Positions 40,976 through 59,277 of a DNA stretch of 64,000 bases are shown piece after piece. The DNA comes from a virus (Duplodnaviria; Caudoviricetes). The position numbers were made by a program, and so were the translations under genes. The stretch is taken from IMG/VR virus record IMGVR_UViG_3300035208_004396; one strand, 5' to 3'. The stretch's first letter is position 1. Every line of letters starts with the position of its first letter. A model generated the notes under the pieces. It did not search any database, had not been told where the DNA came from, and worked only from the letters and a program-made list of their open reading frames with translations.

Positions 40976-42955
40976 TTAAATATATTCGAAACTATTCTTT
41001 TTACATAATTGAACACCTATCTTTTTACAAAACAGATTACATTTTACCGATTTATTAGTTTTTTCTGGTCCTATTATAATATAATTCGGAGCTTTTATGT
41101 GTTCTTTTATCAAATAAATCCATTTTTCGAAGCTTATATCGCTCATTTCATCTGGTGTTCCAGACCAATGTTCATAATTCTTACCAAAAGGTGGACAAAC
41201 TATAACAGTTTTATCTGTTTCTACTATTTGAGCTAAAACATCTCTTTTAACCCAATGATAATAATCACAAAAATTCTGATTTATATCATAAGCTTCTATT
41301 TTGCCTGTGCTATCTAAACCATGATCCTGAAACCATTGTCTTACACCATCTATTATACCACCGAATCCTGCCATAGGACAATATGCACCATTCGATATAT
41401 CAATCTGCGATTGATATATCATTTTCAAAAGATCATTCTTTCTCAATGCTGTAACCTTAGGTGCTATCTTAGCTATTGTGAATCGATCGAGAATCAAACT
41501 CAGATCATCTGATAATATACCTTTGATATATCGTATACAAAAATTTGGATATTTTCCTGTTTCTAATGCTGAATCTAACATCTTAACCATGTTTTTAACG
41601 GCTTTTAATAGACATTTAGGATCTTTCCAAGCCTCTAATGGTGATTTATATCCGTTTACAAAACAAAACCATATAGGGTGTTCTTTCGGCCATTTAGCAG
41701 TACCAGGAAAAGGAGATTCGATACATTTCTGGACTAAATTATCAATATCTAAATCTCGATCATATAAATAATTGATCATATTTAATGGGTTTTTCCCGTT
41801 AATTATATCTACCTTATTTTCGACCATACATTGATATTTCGCCGAATCGATGGTGTTTTCTTTCTGCATCAAACCTAAAAGATAATCGTTTTTAAGGTCT
41901 ATTATCCTTGAACCTATCTTAAAATCGGGAAAATAATAATGGGTTTCTCCTTCGAATACATAAGGAAACTTAATCTTAGGATGATATTCGAAGTCAATAT
42001 CCATATATTTTAGCAAATTATAGAACTTAACCTCATAATTAGAATCAAATGTTATCCCATCATACTTAATCTTGTGCCACTTTGCTGTGTTAAACTCAAC
42101 TGTCTGTGAATATGATCTAACACCATATCTTTGGAGATTAGTTTCCTGCATTTTCTTAACATTGTGATAATAACGATCACCATATCTTTTTTTGCAAGTA
42201 TCATAACACTTTTCTCTAATTTCCGGTGATGACCAATCGTGTTTGTAACCAAACTTATTCAAATTAGTGGCTTCAATCCTAGATTTTATCTCTTTTCGTC
42301 GCTCAGGACTAATAGATTTCAAAGATTTAGACACCTTTTCTCTATTTTCTGGATCATTCATACTATTATTATCTGAATGTAACTTACTCAAACATTCTTC
42401 TGACCCACAAGTATCTAAAAACTTAAAATGAATAAATTTCCGTTTCTTTCCACAATACGGACATGCATGATCCGAACTATCTACATATCGTTCATAATAA
42501 TCTACAATACTAAGATCTTTATGCTCTTTCTTAATATGCTGTGAAAGCTTATTCTGACTCCTATATCCTAAACCACAAATCTCGCAATGAAACTTCTTCT
42601 CCCTTTCGGCTAAAGATAAAGCTTCAGAATACTTCTCTAAACTACCATACTTTCGAATATGACGTCTATTTATTGCTTCAATTGAAGTTCTACTTGCTCC
42701 ATATTTGGACAACATGGTCTCTCTCTGCTGCTTCCGGACACATACATCTCCACCACATGTACTTAAATATCCACCATGCTCAAACCTACAAGCTTTTCCA
42801 CAATACTTACATACATGTTTGACACCGGGCTCAATATACTGATCATAATAACTCTTGTAATCCACATGATGTGTACGCTGGACATGATTAACTAATCCAC
42901 CTAACTTACTATACTCTTGTCCACAAATCTCACATCTCATATTATCAATATACAA
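40976..42955 (-). CDS. Zinc-finger homing-endonuclease-like protein (PD-(D/E)XK) fused to a C-terminal DNA methyltransferase-like domain
   Basis: Two C2H2 fingers plus CxxC knuckles, T.L.KYG repeats, FDSNYE...YFPDF..IIDLK nuclease; C-term YCPMAGFGG, AYDIN, CPPF; likely start MRCEIC at 42940. Confidence 0.75.
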   Translation of the reverse strand: MYIDNMRCEICGQEYSKLGGLVNHVQRTHHVDYKSYYDQYIEPGVKHVCKYCGKACRFEHGGYLSTCGGDVCVRKQQRETMLSKYGASRTSIEAINRRHIRKYGSLEKYSEALSLAEREKKFHCEICGLGYRSQNKLSQHIKKEHKDLSIVDYYERYVDSSDHACPYCGKKRKFIHFKFLDTCGSEECLSKLHSDNNSMNDPENREKVSKSLKSISPERRKEIKSRIEATNLNKFGYKHDWSSPEIREKCYDTCKKRYGDRYYHNVKKMQETNLQRYGVRSYSQTVEFNTAKWHKIKYDGITFDSNYEVKFYNLLKYMDIDFEYHPKIKFPYVFEGETHYYFPDFKIGSRIIDLKNDYLLGLMQKENTIDSAKYQCMVENKVDIINGKNPLNMINYLYDRDLDIDNLVQKCIESPFPGTAKWPKEHPIWFCFVNGYKSPLEAWKDPKCLLKAVKNMVKMLDSALETGKYPNFCIRYIKGILSDDLSLILDRFTIAKIAPKVTALRKNDLLKMIYQSQIDISNGAYCPMAGFGGIIDGVRQWFQDHGLDSTGKIEAYDINQNFCDYYHWVKRDVLAQIVETDKTVIVCPPFGKNYEHWSGTPDEMSDISFEKWIYLIKEHIKAPNYIIIGPEKTNKSVKCNLFCKKIGVQLCKKNSFEYI

Positions 42956-42989
42956 AAATTCCTGTGTTTATGACACAGGAATTTCAAGA

Positions 42990-44438
42990 TTAAATGTTCA
43001 CTCTATTCTTTAGCTCAGCTAACTTACCGTCATTCCAAGATTTCGTAATGGACTTTCTAGGCGAGCCACTTAAATATCCTGTTATTCTTCGAACTCGGAT
43101 AAAATCATCCTCTAATTCCGATCCACACTTTGGACACTTCTTATCTATTACTCCGTGAAACATACAAGTTGTACCATCTTCTAACTTATTTATGCATGTA
43201 TCACTATCCATGGTACATGTAAAGTATCCCAAGTTAGCCTCGTACATAGCATCAATAACAGATTTTACAGCTTCTAGATTTTTAGAAAGATCTCCGTCTA
43301 GTTTGTAATAGAATATATGCCCAGCATTAGTTATAGCATGAAATGGTGCTTCCCAATCTAGTTTATTAGGTAGAGTAGTTTTCAAGTCGAATGGTAGCAT
43401 GTGGCTGTTTGTGTAATAGCCTTTGCCAAATAGTTGGAAGAGATCCAATTTTGCCAGTTTTTTGTTATTTTGGAATAGATTTTTGTCTATATTTGCGAAT
43501 CTTCCAGCAGTAGCTTCAGCAGGAGTGGCGAAACAGCTCCAGTTCAAATGAGTTTCTTTTTGACAATTTTTAGTAAAATCGAAGATGTGTTGGATTATTT
43601 TGAATCCTAGATCTTTGATTTCTTTGTCTTTTCCCCAAGTTTTGCCCGTTAAGGCTAAGATAGTTTCATATAGTCCGACATATCCTATGCTCAAAGTAGA
43701 TTGTTTTAGAACTTCGCCTATTTTATCAGTTATGTTATGAACTTTATCATCACTTGTGAGGTATAAACCTTGTTGCATAGTGAATGGATAAGATTCATAA
43801 GTTTTGTTTGAGATTAAGTTGAAACGATCTAATAATGATTGTTTTACATCTAATAAGATTTCATCTAGTTTATCAAAGAAGAGTTTAATTCGTTTATCTT
43901 GATCATCTTCGTCTAGATAAGATTCTATTGCCATTCTTGGTAAATTGATGGTATGGAAAGCGAAATTACCACGAGCTGTAGTTTGTTCTGTGCCATTGAT
44001 ATTACCGATTACTCGTGTCCTGCAATTTCCCGAATTAAAACCAGACAATTCAAATCTACCCGATTCAGTTTCAACATCATAAGAATCTGCCACACTATTT
44101 ATGTATCTTACCGAAATAACTTTAACTCTAGTATCGAGATAACGAATTGTATCACCAATTCTTATATCTTTAACATATGTACGTCCACGTTCAAGATATA
44201 GCGGATGATCATCGGTTAATCTTAGAATAATGCGATTTGAAAATTCAACTTCTGTCCAATTATTAACCATAGTATTTTTAATCAATTTTTTGCATTTAAC
44301 AAAATCTTGTAATTCATTATCAAAAACTTCAACATTATATTGTGCCAAATCTATGTATTCTGAAACTTCAGAATATCGATTAATCTTGTATTTTTTGCTG
44401 AATTCATCCCACATGTCTTTAAATTTAATTTTTATCAT
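42990..44438 (-). CDS. nrdD: Anaerobic (class III) RNR C-terminal piece carrying an N-terminal IntC
   Basis: After 138 intein residues: CRTRV, RGNFAFHTINLPR, LSIGYVG, ATPAE, YYTNSH, CPKCG, RRITGYL glycyl-radical motif. Confidence 0.93.
   Translation of the reverse strand: MIKIKFKDMWDEFSKKYKINRYSEVSEYIDLAQYNVEVFDNELQDFVKCKKLIKNTMVNNWTEVEFSNRIILRLTDDHPLYLERGRTYVKDIRIGDTIRYLDTRVKVISVRYINSVADSYDVETESGRFELSGFNSGNCRTRVIGNINGTEQTTARGNFAFHTINLPRMAIESYLDEDDQDKRIKLFFDKLDEILLDVKQSLLDRFNLISNKTYESYPFTMQQGLYLTSDDKVHNITDKIGEVLKQSTLSIGYVGLYETILALTGKTWGKDKEIKDLGFKIIQHIFDFTKNCQKETHLNWSCFATPAEATAGRFANIDKNLFQNNKKLAKLDLFQLFGKGYYTNSHMLPFDLKTTLPNKLDWEAPFHAITNAGHIFYYKLDGDLSKNLEAVKSVIDAMYEANLGYFTCTMDSDTCINKLEDGTTCMFHGVIDKKCPKCGSELEDDFIRVRRITGYLSGSPRKSITKSWNDGKLAELKNRVNI
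44025..44438 (-). other. Split intein C-fragment (IntC, 138 aa) of NrdD
   Basis: Block B LTDDH, block F YDVET, terminal SGN followed by Cys+1. Confidence 0.88.
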
Positions 44439-45091
44439 CTAAGCATTCCTTTTTTGAAATTTTCTGGTATTTCATTATCGGTTTTAAACATCTTATTTTT
44501 AATACCATCATTATACCAATAATACCCTTTGGTTGACATCCTTTTATCTTTTTGTACTACATCTGTACGTCCACGTACAAAGCCTTCTGGTATTTCATCA
44601 GTTTCTTTAAGTGTGATGTTAATAACAGTATTTGTATACCATTTCCTTCCATACATAGCATTTCCTTTACCAAACCTTTGCCCAGTTCTTCTCATAGTTT
44701 CATTCGATTTAGCTGCAATCAATCTAGAATTATTAGCATTTATAATTCGTAATTCTTCAAATTCCTTTGGTGTAATTCTAATTTTATAACCACTTTTTGG
44801 AGAATGTGCTTGATAATGCCAGGCTTGAGCATGTTGCCTAGTTGGAATTGCTTTGTATAACAAATGATGAGCAATAATATGTTCTTTTGCAGTAAAAAAT
44901 ACTAAATTTTCTATACAATTAGAACCTCCATCACACACTGGTATAATATGATGTAATTCTAGATATTTAAAATTGGTCTCATTATAAATGATACCTTTCA
45001 AATTTCTCAAACTTCTGGTACGTGAATAAAAATAATTAAAACGTATCTGTGATTTTTGGCATAAAGCATCATAAATATGTTTATAATTCAT
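44435..45091 (-). CDS. HNH homing endonuclease (T4 Mob-like) inserted within nrdD
   Basis: ELHHIIP..DGG.N..ENLV..TAKEH..AH; GNAMYG and WY.DG/N repeats; ATGA overlap with IntC. Confidence 0.88.
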   Translation of the reverse strand: MNYKHIYDALCQKSQIRFNYFYSRTRSLRNLKGIIYNETNFKYLELHHIIPVCDGGSNCIENLVFFTAKEHIIAHHLLYKAIPTRQHAQAWHYQAHSPKSGYKIRITPKEFEELRIINANNSRLIAAKSNETMRRTGQRFGKGNAMYGRKWYTNTVINITLKETDEIPEGFVRGRTDVVQKDKRMSTKGYYWYNDGIKNKMFKTDNEIPENFKKGMLR

Positions 45092-49264: not shown

Positions 49265-49788
49265 TAAAGCACCCCATATCTTTTAAGTAAATCTATTGCT
49301 TTTATAATACCAAAAACTTCTTCTTGTTTATCACATGTCCAATCATAATGAATAATATTCATCTTTTTTTCATATAATTTATGACTATAATCAAGATATT
49401 TATCGATCAATTTGTCAATATTTTCTTTAATTCCTGCCATTTGTTCTCGATCACCCCAATTAGTAATAACCGATTTCGGTGGCATACAAAAGATAAATAA
49501 GTCTATTCTAGACAAAAATCTATTTACATCGATAAAATTAGTGTCCATTAAATCTACATTTCTTAATATCGGCCCATTTACAGACTCTTCTATTACCGAA
49601 AAACGATCGAAAATGAGATTAGACTTGGTTTTTTTAGCATTATTCAATGTAATATCTAGATAATCGAGATACTCTTGTGAAGTTTTACCTGCTCCTAAAG
49701 ATCTAACATATTGAAAACCCAAATCTTTAATTTGATTAGCTAAAGTCGTTTTACCTGAATTATCGGGTCCAAAAATAACAATATTCAT
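49264..49788 (-). CDS. dNMP/thymidylate kinase-like P-loop kinase
   Basis: GPDNSGKTT, IFDR, E.V.G..LR. Confidence 0.85.
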   Translation of the reverse strand: MNIVIFGPDNSGKTTLANQIKDLGFQYVRSLGAGKTSQEYLDYLDITLNNAKKTKSNLIFDRFSVIEESVNGPILRNVDLMDTNFIDVNRFLSRIDLFIFCMPPKSVITNWGDREQMAGIKENIDKLIDKYLDYSHKLYEKKMNIIHYDWTCDKQEEVFGIIKAIDLLKRYGVL

Positions 49789-49803
49789 ATTTGATTTACC
49801 CTA

Positions 49804-50493
49804 TTAAAAGATATTTTCATCGAAATTCTTACGATAAGTATGCAATGAGAAAATGGTCTGTTGATAACTACCAACTTCGAAACCAAGTTCAGCAGCAACA
49901 AACTCCAATAATTTAATGCCCAGATAAACATCATTACAAAAATGAGTATATAAATCACAGCTTCGCATCACATTATGCATGTTCAATTTATCATTTCGAT
50001 ACTGGAAATGATAACCTAATGTACAGGGTACTCGACCAACACCACCCAACTTATTAGGGTCTTCATTCGGATCCCATACAGATAACCAACCTTGTCGCGT
50101 ATTAGGATCATTTTCGAATGCTTTAATCAATTTATCTATTTGATTATTACGATTATATCTACCGTTATATGTATAACTCATCTTGCCATTTACTAAGAAT
50201 TCCTCCCAAACATCATTTCTTAATTTATATGCTTCCCCTGGATTAAGATCTTTTTTACTGATTCTTTCTTCAAATTCGGCATCTGCCCAAGGTTGAGAAA
50301 CATTAGTAATCTCATTAGATTTGGCATTTAGCAATACATAGGAGTAATTCTGGATTTCCTTAGTAATAAACATCGGATTACCATCGATTATCTTATTTTG
50401 CATCGATTTAGTCTTAATAGTTATACCATTTTCGGAAAGATCTCGCTTAATTTCATCATAAGCTTCGGACCAATTTGAATAAAATCTGGCCAT
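49804..50493 (-). CDS. Thymidylate-synthase-family enzyme with dCMP-type specificity residue (dCMP hydroxymethylase/methylase-like)
   Basis: TRQ, VPCTL, MRSCDLYTHFCND, SLHTY; Asp at the position of T4 gp42 D179 / E. coli ThyA N177. Confidence 0.75.
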   Translation of the reverse strand: MARFYSNWSEAYDEIKRDLSENGITIKTKSMQNKIIDGNPMFITKEIQNYSYVLLNAKSNEITNVSQPWADAEFEERISKKDLNPGEAYKLRNDVWEEFLVNGKMSYTYNGRYNRNNQIDKLIKAFENDPNTRQGWLSVWDPNEDPNKLGGVGRVPCTLGYHFQYRNDKLNMHNVMRSCDLYTHFCNDVYLGIKLLEFVAAELGFEVGSYQQTIFSLHTYRKNFDENIF

Positions 50494-56456: not shown

Positions 56457-57356
56457 ATGAATGTGTTCATGAAGAATGAAAATCTCCGAGGTATACATGA
56501 CAATATAGAAATGTCAAGTGAAGATAATTTGAATTTTGCTAAATGTATGAGCGATATTTTTGAATTTTCTAGATATTTCTACATCATCATGGCCGGCATA
56601 GGTTTTGCCCCTATAAAACTCAGAGAATATCAAACCAGAGTGATAAAAGCTCTAGTTACTAAAGTCGAAGGCAAAAACAATAGAATCATAATGCAAGGTA
56701 GACAAACTGGAAAAACTACCATAGCATCATTATATCTACTCTGGTTATTCCTTTTTGAAAAAGACAAAACGTTCGCCATATTAGCAAACAAAGAAGATCA
56801 AGCTCTTGAAATCATGAATAGAATTCAAAATGCTTATCTGAAATTACCACTATGGTTACAATGCCCAGTATTAAACTGGACTCAATCAAAAATCGTATTG
56901 TCTAACGGGAACACAATGTTCACTGCTGCTTCTAGCAGTGATTCTATCCGCGGTAAATCGGTATCATATATGCTAGTTGACGAATTTGCTCACCTAGATG
57001 GTTCTGTAGCTAAAAAGTTCATGGATTCGGTATTCCCTACTCAAGCAGCTGATCCGGATGCTAAACTCATATTGATCTCAACACCTAATGGAACTAATCA
57101 GTTCTATGATACATGGCAAAAAGCTAGAGCTGGCATCAACTCGTTCATTCCGATCATGGTCCAATGGTATGAAGTTCCTGGCAGAGATGAAAAATTCAAA
57201 GAACGTATAATCAAAGACAACGGAATAAGACACTTTATGCAAGAATATGCTTGCGTAGATGGTGATTCTGTCGTAAAAGTTAGAAATAAGGAAAATAATG
57301 CTGTTTTTGAGATAAAAACGAGAGATTTATATCATGAATTATCATTAGTGGATTAA
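56457..57356 (+). CDS. gp17: Terminase large subunit (T4 gp17-like), N-terminal ATPase piece ending in IntN
   Basis: LREYQ, GRQTGKTT, ILANK, LPLWLQ, IRG.S, VDEFAH, ISTPNG.N.FY, WYEVPGRDE, F.QEY then intein. Confidence 0.92.
   Translation: MNVFMKNENLRGIHDNIEMSSEDNLNFAKCMSDIFEFSRYFYIIMAGIGFAPIKLREYQTRVIKALVTKVEGKNNRIIMQGRQTGKTTIASLYLLWLFLFEKDKTFAILANKEDQALEIMNRIQNAYLKLPLWLQCPVLNWTQSKIVLSNGNTMFTAASSSDSIRGKSVSYMLVDEFAHLDGSVAKKFMDSVFPTQAADPDAKLILISTPNGTNQFYDTWQKARAGINSFIPIMVQWYEVPGRDEKFKERIIKDNGIRHFMQEYACVDGDSVVKVRNKENNAVFEIKTRDLYHELSLVD
57252..57353 (+). other. Split intein N-fragment (IntN, 34 aa: CVDGDSVVKVRNKENNAVFEIKTRDLYHELSLVD)
   Basis: Block A CVDGDS, I.T.DLY..L, then stop; QEYA|C junction resembles that of known TerL split inteins. 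Confidence 0.85.
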
Positions 57357-57397: not shown

Positions 57398-58756
57398 ATG
57401 AGATGTGAGATATGTTTAAGAGAATTCAGTCCTAATGGTTTAGCTGCCCATATAGAGAACAGTCATAAAGAAATAAATGTTAAAGATTATTATGACAAAT
57501 ATCTTCGAAAAGAAAACGAAGGTAAATGTAAGATATGTGGAAAACCAACTAGATTCAAGGGTTTTAGAGGGTATTCTAAATATTGTTCGATGAAATGTGT
57601 TTGGCATGATAAAGATATAGTAAAGAAGAGAAATTCACATACAGATTTTGACAAAGCATCTAAAAAAGCAAGTTTTGTAAAGTTTGCAAAATATGGGAGT
57701 GGTATTAGCGAGTCTGAGAGATATCGTAGAATTGAAAGATCTAAAGCTAATTTGTCCCGTATTTTGAGTGAAAATCATTGTGAATTGATAGATATAGTTC
57801 TGAAAAATGGTAAGATTTATTCAGTTAAGTATCGTTGTTCTATATGTAATTCCGAGTATACAAGGGTAAGAAGTGGAATTGACCGAAATTATCGAGATGG
57901 AAAGGGCGGATTTTGTCCTAATTGTTCACCTAAGTATAGTAATCCAGAAGGAGAGATTTACAATTATATCAAATCTATCTATTCCGGTTCGATCATTATG
58001 CATGACCGGAAGTGTTTAGCTGGACATGAATTAGATATCTTCATACCCGATGTTAATATCGCAATAGAATATGACAGTTTTCATTTTCACGATGAAAATC
58101 ATGTAACTAAGTTTTATCATATAGAAAAAACAGAAGCTTGTTTAGCTAAAAATATCAAGTTGATCCATATATTCGAAGATGAGTGGCGAGATCGAAAAGA
58201 TATCGTTAAGTCTAGACTTTCTGGATTTTTTCACAAAAACAAGGTAATCTATGCAAGGAAAACTGAGTTTAGAGTTGTTTCTCATCAAAATGCTAAAGAA
58301 TTTCTAATAGAGAATCACATACAAGGATATTGTATTTCTAAAATAAGATATGGTTTATATCTAAAAGATGAATTAGTTGCCTTGATGACTTTTGGTAAGT
58401 CTAGATTTTCCGATGAATTCGAGATGTTACGTTTCTGTAATAAGAAATATACTAATGTGGTAGGTGGAGCTAGTAAATTGATTAAACATGCCGGATTATC
58501 TTTCGTAACTTATGCTGATAGAAGATGGTCTAATGGTGATTTATATCGTAAATTGGGAATGAAGTTTCTAGGAAAAACAGAGCCGAATTATCATTATATT
58601 GTTAAACACAGATTAGAAAGTAGGTTCAAATATCAAAAACACAAGCTTATTTTAGCCGGATTCGATCCAAATCTTTCCGAACATGATATTATGAAAAAAC
58701 TAGAAATTTTCAGGATATATGACTCTGGTATGTTGAAATTTTCATATAATAGCTAA
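57398..58756 (+). CDS. Zinc-finger Hef-like homing endonuclease (PD-(D/E)XK/Vsr-like)
   Basis: MRCEIC C2H2, CKICG, S.PE.EI, ELDIFIP...AIEYD...H, LIHIFEDEW, ARKTE, GGASKL, YADRRWS.G, IYDSG. Confidence 0.85.
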   Translation: MRCEICLREFSPNGLAAHIENSHKEINVKDYYDKYLRKENEGKCKICGKPTRFKGFRGYSKYCSMKCVWHDKDIVKKRNSHTDFDKASKKASFVKFAKYGSGISESERYRRIERSKANLSRILSENHCELIDIVLKNGKIYSVKYRCSICNSEYTRVRSGIDRNYRDGKGGFCPNCSPKYSNPEGEIYNYIKSIYSGSIIMHDRKCLAGHELDIFIPDVNIAIEYDSFHFHDENHVTKFYHIEKTEACLAKNIKLIHIFEDEWRDRKDIVKSRLSGFFHKNKVIYARKTEFRVVSHQNAKEFLIENHIQGYCISKIRYGLYLKDELVALMTFGKSRFSDEFEMLRFCNKKYTNVVGGASKLIKHAGLSFVTYADRRWSNGDLYRKLGMKFLGKTEPNYHYIVKHRLESRFKYQKHKLILAGFDPNLSEHDIMKKLEIFRIYDSGMLKFSYNS

Positions 58757-58854: not shown

Positions 58855-59277
58855 ATGAAAAAACTATTAATCGCATTATCCCTGCTTGCATGCGTATGCA
58901 TGGCGGAACAATTCACGCGGACATACAAGACCGCTGTCGTATGCGGCACACACGAAGACACAACGTGCCAAATTAAAGGTACTGACATACCGGTTATCTT
59001 TAATTATGGAGGAAACGCCGGTGTAATTTTGTTCCCCCAATCTACTGGTTCTGTAAAACTGACGCCTTATGGTAACAAGGATACTAGTACCAATGACAAT
59101 GGTGTCGACTTACAGGAATACTCCTTCGTTGATAATGACGGTGACCTAGGATCCTATACGTTCTGGGATGGCGGGCTGATTATCCAGTATAATGTAGGAG
59201 TTCAAATAATCATGATGGTATGCCCATCTACTAACATGTGTCCTTGTTATTCATTCGCTAATTCATGGTGCCATTGA
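58855..59277 (+). CDS. Exported hypothetical protein
   Basis: Signal peptide MKKLLIALSLLACVCMA; AAGGAG RBS; visibly GC-richer. Confidence 0.65.
   Translation: MKKLLIALSLLACVCMAEQFTRTYKTAVVCGTHEDTTCQIKGTDIPVIFNYGGNAGVILFPQSTGSVKLTPYGNKDTSTNDNGVDLQEYSFVDNDGDLGSYTFWDGGLIIQYNVGVQIIMMVCPSTNMCPCYSFANSWCH

Follow-up and report, generated by a model that had tools for sequence, protein, structure and literature searches.

Introduction

Homing endonucleases are thought to spare the genomes that carry them through an insertion or a sequence change that destroys their own target. The free-standing nucleases of T4-like phages insert next to the genes that they cut, and the nrdG/nrdD junction is a known homing slot of these phages (mobC/segH) (PMC2988022). 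This report concerns a gene in a 64,000-nt, AT-rich (~30% GC) stretch of DNA from an uncultured T4-like phage, IMG/VR record IMGVR_UViG_3300035208_004396, which is called the window below, and in particular the 269-aa C-terminal domain of its product, for which a methyltransferase fold is predicted. Like the free-standing enzymes of T4-like phages (mobC, segH, Hef) and like I-Bth0305I and I-Ssp6803I, the gene is intergenic, lying directly after nrdD, and it is preceded by a terminator-like hairpin and encodes modular DNA-binding repeats together with a small nuclease core. The predicted fold of its nuclease matches TnsA, I-Bth0305I and Vsr, placing it with the PD-(D/E)XK/Vsr-like homing enzymes. 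What sets it apart is the methyltransferase-fold domain, which is present in none of the described homing endonucleases.

The type IIG and type IIL restriction enzymes, including MmeI and BpuSI, resemble the window's protein in carrying an N-terminal PD-(D/E)XK nuclease, a helical region and an amino-methyltransferase fold in one chain, with motif I ahead of motif IV, and BpuSI (Z 8.8) and MmeI (Z 8.3) are among the structural matches of the window's domain in the fold scan described below. Unlike these enzymes, the window's protein has no C-terminal target-recognition domain, DNA binding presumably being provided by its N-terminal zinc fingers and repeats; its motif IV reads CPPF as opposed to NPPY or NPPF, there is no match at the level of sequence, and the gene occupies a phage homing slot rather than a cellular defence locus. 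An earlier interpretation made without database searches (the sequence-only reading) had called the gene type IIG-like, a term that fits loosely: the order of nuclease and methyltransferase agrees, and the C-terminal recognition domain and the host-defence context do not.

A predicted methyltransferase fold in the C-terminal domain

Structure prediction allows the last 269 aa of the protein to be assigned confidently to the class I S-adenosylmethionine (SAM) methyltransferase fold, closest to the nucleic-acid amino-methyltransferases. In the AlphaFold2 (AF2) model, built with an alignment of 36 homologues (55% mean column identity, 49 invariant columns), a helical subdomain of ~130 aa precedes a Rossmann core in which G.YCPMAGFGG comes after strand 1, strand 2 is made up of EAYD, and strand 4 leads directly into CPPF. 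The motifs YCPMAGFGG, AYDIN and CPPF singled out in the sequence-only reading are present and fall at the places of motifs I, II and IV in the predicted fold, and the Rossmann methyltransferase fold, whose absence from the C-terminal region would have counted against that reading, is predicted (Table 1). Invariant blocks among the 36 homologues include FPG..K/HPIW, RFT.AKI.P..TA, PM.GFG.I, E.YDIN, CPPFG and GPE, and PMAGFGG, EAYDIN and CPPFG are invariant in both the 36-homologue set and a set of 41. The protein ends ~25 residues past strand 5 and leaves no room for a C-terminal target-recognition domain.

Comparison of the model with solved structures gave a consistent picture. Every row listed by Foldseek was a SAM methyltransferase, and local matches at a probability of ~1.0 included M.BseCI, Ta1320, METTL5 and the type I subunit HsdM. 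An independent VIA fold scan of 48,161 chains returned 56 chains at Z>=8, the top 50 of which were all methyltransferases, led by the RsmD-like TTHA0928 (10.1), Trm14 (9.6), TGS1 (9.5), KsgA (9.4), METTL5 (9.2) and PrmC (8.8). The best matches are thus small amino-methyltransferases of RNA and protein (TTHA0928, Trm11/Trm14, TGS1, METTL5, PrmC; Z 8.8-10.1 over 135-147 aligned residues), with which the domain has in common a compact Rossmann core, an (N/D/S)PP(F/Y/W) loop and the lack of a large recognition domain. It differs from them in its helical N-terminal subdomain, which bears an invariant FPGT.KWP..HPIW, in the obligate association of its family with DNA nucleases, and in that the close family is confined to phages and has no sequence match. 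The 36-row profile likewise found no match among PDB sequences. The domain defines an undescribed phage-only family that lacks a Pfam model and named homologues; no description of either homing-endonuclease/methyltransferase fusions or DUF7487, the family matched by the nuclease half, turned up in a literature search.

The nuclease half

The product of the gene is of the free-standing homing-endonuclease type, with zinc-finger and helical-repeat modules ahead of a PD-(D/E)XK core. Residue numbers of motifs refer to a 659-aa reading of the frame from a TTG codon, unless they are marked as following the ATG start favoured below. Two C2H2-like fingers (aa 8-30 and 124-145) are each followed by a CxxCG...C..C knuckle (aa 49-72 and 165-188), five (K/R)(Y/F)G helical repeats, presumed to bind DNA, are found at aa 84, 102, 234, 257 and 276, and the core carries the motifs PDF (aa 343-345) and DLK (aa 353-355). 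The zinc fingers, KYG-type repeats and PD-(D/E)XK core of the sequence-only reading are therefore all in place, and the homing-endonuclease identity that it proposed is borne out by a DUF7487 match well above the cut-off (Table 1) and by a match to the PHROG 'homing endonuclease' family phrog_3339 (E 6e-13); the nuclease core also has weak matches to PHROG endonuclease and resolvase families. Among the fused relatives that form a clade with the window's gene (ATG numbering), conservation is complete at S300 and K368 and reaches at least 90% at E303 and P338/D339; in alignment A4, S300, E303, D339 (of PD) and K368 are all invariant, and relatives of both kinds, fused and unfused, share this invariant S, E, D and K.

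Residues 1-385, modelled with AF2 from a 15-row alignment (pLDDT 80.7, pTM 0.35), have the appearance of beads on a string, with a helical repeat region and, at residues 288-385, a compact alpha/beta domain. With this last domain VIA returned TnsA (Z 7.4, root-mean-square deviation 3.0, 92 aligned residues), the catalytic domain of I-Bth0305I (5.4) and Vsr (5.3), followed by VRR-NUC, Bax1 and the nuclease domains of BsaXI and BpuSI, values that are modest for a nuclease domain of ~95 aa in a match list that is coherent. Foldseek searches with the whole N-terminal model were swamped by zinc-finger arrays, and the nuclease core surfaced only with VIA.

Nuclease and methyltransferase-like domain as one mobile module

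The genomic context of the domain was surveyed at 22 distinct loci, including the window, and at 20 of these it either forms a fusion with a homing-endonuclease-type gene or lies directly downstream of one. Eight loci have fusions, seven to DUF7487 (six of them right after nrdD, the window's among these) and one, after gp23, to an unrecognised N-terminal part. In 12 more the domain is a separate gene, and the open reading frame (ORF) immediately upstream of it, in the same orientation, encodes a nuclease, of the DUF7487, NUMOD3 or phrog_3339 type or an HNH-like ORF of 231 aa; the intervening gaps are mostly -53 to +48 nt, often overlapping, with two wider ones of 198 and 440 nt. The order is always the same, the nuclease preceding the methyltransferase-like domain. 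The HNH-like assignment (L025 and L031) follows from a C-terminal motif seen by eye (IDHIRPV ... NLRPL ... N), with no family-model match. Among metagenome proteins the domain occurs either as a protein of 250-350 aa or as the C-terminus of proteins of 360-810 aa, the N-terminal parts of which are DUF7487, NUMOD3 or NinG-type zinc ribbons. A separately encoded methyltransferase-like ORF can also bear its own zinc-ribbon extension, and the product at L025 shares 96% identity with a protein that has a NinG-family match. Among 72 distant relatives the fusion partners are DUF7487 (33), NUMOD3 (4), MTES_1575 (4) and a TnsA-like domain (1); the fusion, whose recurrence in other phages had been proposed as a check, is accordingly widespread.

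The conserved gene beside the cassette varies from locus to locus (nrdD, a gp23-type capsid gene, a second capsid type, SSAP/DNA polymerase, RNA polymerase beta), these neighbours are typical homing targets, and some loci adjoin a further homing endonuclease. Given the varied loci, the near-constant linkage to a nuclease and the repeated tethering to DNA binders, the methyltransferase-like domain belongs together with the nuclease to one mobile module and is not a resident phage gene. That it might instead be an ordinary conserved phage gene which homing nucleases target, with the fusion an accident of a lost stop codon, is very improbable. The insertion of T4-like free-standing nucleases beside the genes that they cut (PMC2988022) and the hairpin and in-frame ATG at the domain junction would suit this explanation, but the domain has no fixed address, with at least five different conserved neighbour genes, and is almost never found apart from a nuclease; moreover, fusions arose more than once and with different N-terminal partners, and the fused clade keeps both halves intact at NrdD identities of 55-77%.

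The remaining two of the 22 loci (L026 and L028) have no recognisable nuclease. An ORF-free gap lies directly upstream of the methyltransferase-like gene in each (L028:3906-4935, ~1 kb; L026:4399-4947, ~0.55 kb), and either the decay of a different type of partner or the recoding of a stop codon could possibly account for them; tblastn found no decayed DUF7487 remnant upstream of the gene in L025, L026, L028 or L031, the loci that lack an upstream DUF7487 ORF.

These contexts also bear on whether the domain is an active methyltransferase that serves the phage as cargo, through anti-restriction marking or the modification of RNA, tRNA or protein, and is simply mobilised and retained by the nuclease, with no part in self-immunity. 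We regard this as unlikely. It would agree with the RNA and protein amino-methyltransferases among the nearest structural neighbours (RsmD-like, Trm14, Trm11, TGS1, METTL5, KsgA, PrmC), with a domain nearly as conserved as NrdD beside a nuclease half that drifts faster, and with the several other DNA methyltransferases borne by these phages. A useful gene should, however, often outlive the decay of its nuclease, and only the two loci above lack a recognisable one, while the recurrence of in-frame fusions with DNA-binding and nuclease modules favours DNA as the substrate, and joint action.

Other DNA methyltransferase genes of the relatives were noted at L004:14407-15600, L007:673-1521, L007:13053-13889, L007:16298-17911 and L043:7942-9353, and the types represented are C5 DNA_methylase, Dam-like MethyltransfD12, N6_N4_Mtase, EcoRI_methylase and Eco57I/N6_Mtase pieces. 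With so many such genes, the DNA of those phages is probably heavily methylated already.

The motif IV cysteine and the wider superfamily

A profile search of 1.84 billion representatives gathered 238 relatives of the methyltransferase-like domain. The distant relatives form a much larger superfamily characterised by GF..KIAPKVSVF, FDPFSGFSGR and, in most cases, TCPPY after strand 4; the nearer sister groups carry TSPPW or TSTPY at the motif IV position. The Cys of CPPF is invariant in the close family and predominant in the wider one. The link to described enzymes comes through the distant relatives, of which 28 of 72 match Pfam N6_N4_Mtase (PF01555; best E 2e-10) and whose joint profile matches the solved N4-cytosine methyltransferase 8s9n (E 4e-7), Trm11, TGS1 and M.MboIIA. 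In comparison with the PF01555 enzymes (8s9n; M.MboIIA, 1g60), FDPFSGFSG lies opposite DPFAGSG and TCPPY opposite TSPPY, but motif I precedes motif IV in the domain whereas IV precedes I in PF01555, the matched stretches standing in swapped order; the Cys replaces Ser or Asp, and the divergence of the window's own domain is too great for a match to the model.

DNA amino-methyltransferases typically have (D/N/S)PP(Y/F/W) at motif IV, and the window's domain has CPPF instead. Profile alignment sets TCPPYgd opposite TSPPYNK, TDPPYGT and LSPPWG. Because the Cys holds the Ser/Asp position and alternates with Ser within the family, it looks, from these alignments, like a conservative Ser-to-Cys variant of the amino-methyltransferase motif IV and is not taken as a sign of new chemistry. 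The sequence-only reading had entertained a repurposed methyltransferase with Cys at the catalytic position; the residue is real and invariant, while the repurposed chemistry is not favoured by its alignment with the Ser of TSPPY and the Asp of TDPPYG and by the SPPW of the sister groups.

The catalytic Cys of C5-pyrimidine methyltransferases lies in the loop after strand 4. A Cys at a similar place in this domain, invariant in the close family and dominant beyond it, could in principle act as a nucleophile in a different chemistry, for example by attack on pyrimidine C6 leading to C5 modification. Such a role is barely credible: sister groups have Ser at that position (TSPPW, TSTPY), which could not serve as the nucleophile, the Cys stands before the Pro-Pro pair and not after a Pro as in the PC motif of the C5 enzymes, and the structural neighbours are amino-methyltransferases.

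Neither the close-family domain nor the window itself was matched by tblastn and megablast searches of 50,697 GenBank phage records. The wider TCPPY-type domain is present in all 15 Lak megaphage records of that collection (~39% identity over 228 aa, E 1e-42). Among the 50,697 records the close family therefore has no cultured carrier, and the wider type occurs only in the uncultured Lak megaphages. One instance is Prevotella phage Lak MK250021.1, positions 49366-50121; the Lak records carry no annotation.

How the domain may act with the nuclease

The interpretation that we tentatively place first, at rather less than even confidence, is that the domain is an active DNA amino-methyltransferase which is positioned by the DNA-binding modules of the nuclease, marks the element's own site and so shields the genome that carries it. 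The domain would transfer a methyl group from SAM to the exocyclic amino group of a DNA base (of the N4-cytosine or N6-adenine type), with the (S/C)PP(F/Y/W) motif in its usual amino-methyltransferase role, and, having no recognition domain of its own, would be brought to DNA by the sequence-specific binding modules of the endonuclease. Methylation of the element's own recognition site would render the carrier phage immune to its own nuclease, and an unmarked co-infecting relative would be cut and converted. A nuclease that lies beside its target, not inside it, could thereby aim at an invariant site. Marking of this kind would explain why an enzyme without a recognition domain is almost always near a nuclease, and why the type of nuclease varies while the partner stays constant.

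Several points weigh against this interpretation. A methyltransferase acting in trans would also protect the DNA of a competitor, and carrier immunity would need a kinetic or cis bias. We know of no characterised amino-methyltransferase with Cys as the first residue of motif IV. The 269-aa domain as a single sequence has no match in Pfam, PHROG, NCBIfam or PDB sequences, even at E 10, and its last ~25 residues, where strands 6-7 are expected, are modelled at low confidence. An exact look-up of the downstream 130-aa protein found no close relative without the gene and no empty site; seven places with an identical downstream gene also carry the fusion wherever the upstream region is covered, and presence/absence polymorphism, the hallmark of active homing, was not seen among them. 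In this last respect the window's gene, a putative homing element, may differ from the T4-like homing endonucleases.

The Cys at motif IV, in place of the usual Asp, Asn or Ser, may also be taken to mean that the domain does not methylate at all and is a SAM-binding regulatory or DNA-reading module of the nuclease, acting through base flipping or SAM-gated cleavage. The lack of a recognition domain, the short fold with its poorly modelled C-terminal hairpin and the constant nuclease-first polarity are in keeping with such a module, and a precedent is available in the type IIG enzyme Tth111II, for which stimulation of cleavage by SAM is documented (PMC3899748). Nevertheless, the positions of the SAM pocket and of motif IV are all invariant over a wide divergence, which is more than binding alone usually demands, and many members of the family are separate proteins; we consider a non-catalytic role of this kind improbable.

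If the domain does methylate and mark DNA, the cassettes could be phage-borne hybrids of homing endonuclease and restriction-modification system in which carrier immunity would be epigenetic rather than sequence-based, a broader proposition that we put forward with more doubt than the marking activity itself. Perfectly conserved sites next to essential genes would be open to such an element as targets, and it could move between unrelated phages.

The nrdD slot and the history of the fusion

The fusion ORF begins 34 nt after the C-terminal piece of a split nrdD, and the nrdD region is presumed to be the homing target of the element. The fusion also lies directly after nrdD in five relatives (L016, L018, L019, L022 and L024), and in L007/L019 and L024 the gene is located between nrdD and nrdG, the junction occupied by mobC/segH in T4-like phages. 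In a maximum-likelihood tree of the 22 domains the six fused nrdD-adjacent forms make up one clade (support 98/97), and the unfused nrdD-adjacent form (L011) and the gp23-adjacent forms fall outside it, so that both the nrdD and the gp23 position were occupied repeatedly, and the window's fusion had a single origin.

Identities between the window and the five relatives are 55-77% for NrdD, 52-62% for the methyltransferase-like domain and 37-58% for the nuclease half, and the ranking of the relatives is roughly equal for all three. These values point to stronger constraint on the methyltransferase-like half than on the nuclease half, and they mark the module as an old, intact resident at nrdD that has long been inherited with it.

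An HNH gene (44435-45091, minus strand) separates the two nrdD pieces of the window and is optional. In near-identical contigs (L005/L042, L045, L046) it is missing from between nrdD pieces of 494 and 482 aa, and the nrdD split persists without the HNH nuclease.

Gene boundaries, hairpins and neighbouring genes

The ORF at 40976-42955 on the minus strand, which the sequence-only reading had begun at TTG 42955, has 659 open codons from that position. The ORF itself is real and its start needs correcting: gene callers use ATG 42940 on identical contigs, the same 654-aa product being called on at least four independent contigs from several samples. As read from the sequence, ATG 42940 is the likely start and TTG 42955 the less likely one, since the latter sits within the T-run of a hairpin. 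The hairpin ahead of the gene, also proposed in that reading, is real; its 13-bp stem and T-run run from 42985 to 42955 on the minus strand, none of 200 shuffled sequences folds equally well, and it is one of three terminator-like sites in the scan, against 0.6 expected. A late-promoter-like word, NATANATA-N4-ATG, was considered and rejected: it is absent ahead of the fusion gene, and with this one spacing the word occurs four times in the window against 4.5 expected by chance.

Stand-alone homologues of the methyltransferase-like domain start at the boundary between its two halves, where the window has a second hairpin and an ATG (41777-41802). These may be a relic of an earlier intergenic region, or an internal start giving a free methyltransferase-like protein. 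Genes of the window near the fusion are gp32, the two-piece NrdD with the HNH gene between its pieces, a type II topoisomerase subunit and an N-terminal piece of TerL.

Table 1. Features of the fusion gene and its surroundings in the window
Feature	Position	Strand	Remarks
Fusion protein coding sequence, 654 aa	40976..42940	-	ATG 42940; stop codon 40976-40978; alternative TTG 42955 gives 659 aa
Terminator-like hairpin, perfect 13-bp stem, 5-nt loop and T-run	42955..42985	-	Separates the nrdD stop (42990-42992) from the gene start; fold z-score -3.75
Zinc-finger module 1 (C2H2-like finger, YYDxY, CxxCG...C..C knuckle)	42740..42934	-	Common to ORF 57398-58756
Zinc-finger module 2 (repeat of module 1)	42392..42586	-	Pfam zf-C2H2_4, E 3.6e-6
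DUF7487 match (PF24308)	41855..42376	-	Spans the (K/R)(Y/F)G repeats into the nuclease core; E 2.4e-11, 44.4 bits against a cut-off of 27
PD-(D/E)XK nuclease core	41786..42079	-	Elements in order FDS..E, PDF, DLK, AK.QC..N
8-bp hairpin at the nuclease/methyltransferase-like boundary	41782..41802	-	Followed closely by in-frame ATG 41777-41779
Methyltransferase-like domain, 269 aa	40979..41785	-	Helical N-terminal subdomain and Rossmann core (predicted); AF2 pLDDT 85.2, pTM 0.80
Motif X-like RFTIAKIAPKVTAL	41444-41485	-	Methyltransferase-like domain
Motif I YCPMAGFGG, aa 525-533	41357-41383	-	Methyltransferase-like domain
Motif II AYDIN, aa 555-559	41279-41293	-	Methyltransferase-like domain
Motif IV CPPF, aa 587-590	41186-41197	-	Methyltransferase-like domain
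nrdD C-terminal piece	42990..44438	-	Pfam NRDD, E 6e-82; nrdD is also the neighbour in six relatives

A second zinc-finger nuclease in the window

The N-terminal finger module of the fusion protein is also found in the product of ORF 57398-58756 on the plus strand (BLASTP E 8e-11), confirming a resemblance noted earlier. Both finger genes follow pieces of split genes, as had been claimed: the fusion follows the nrdD C-terminal piece, and ORF 57398-58756 follows a TerL N-terminal piece (56457-57356, plus strand; Pfam Terminase_6N). The tail of the TerL piece starts CVDGDSVV, which by eye reads as intein-like. The next ORF (58855-59277, plus strand) resembles a secreted protein and is not the TerL C-terminal piece, which must therefore be encoded elsewhere.

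A language-model search with the C-terminal ~180 aa of this second nuclease led to phage clusters in which 12-26% of members match Pfam Mom, or which carry GNAT acetyltransferase (score 0.94-0.96). The same part is 42% identical (E 4e-36) to the C-terminus of a DUF7487 nuclease at another locus (L029:3161-4957), which has a sub-threshold Mom match of its own (E 0.0024) and lies directly upstream of a methyltransferase-like gene. ORF 57398-58756 may be a second instance in the window of a nuclease combined with a modification function, and it is offered as a lead that homing nucleases of this kind repeatedly bear DNA-modification-type domains.

Concluding remarks

The known part of this system is the homing endonuclease, and the new part is its modification-type partner. 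What is added here is the TCPPY/SPPW superfamily and its link to PF01555, the reading of the motif IV Cys as a counterpart of Ser, the single origin of the fused nrdD clade and its divergence in parallel with NrdD. Should the domain turn out to lack activity, or to have RNA as its substrate, what remains is a new domain family that hitch-hikes on mobile nucleases. The family is large, with hundreds of clusters from gut, rumen and digester-type metagenomes and, for the wider TCPPY group, the Lak megaphages. A compact methyltransferase that lacks a recognition domain and is addressed by zinc-finger or NUMOD-type binders could also be of interest for targeted DNA-methylation tools. For the phages themselves, a domain family so closely linked to nucleases suggests that these elements mark DNA as well as cut it. 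If this is true, the methyltransferase partner would be a different solution to the problem of self-sparing, one borrowed from restriction-modification, and would make selfish homing elements and restriction-modification systems harder to tell apart.

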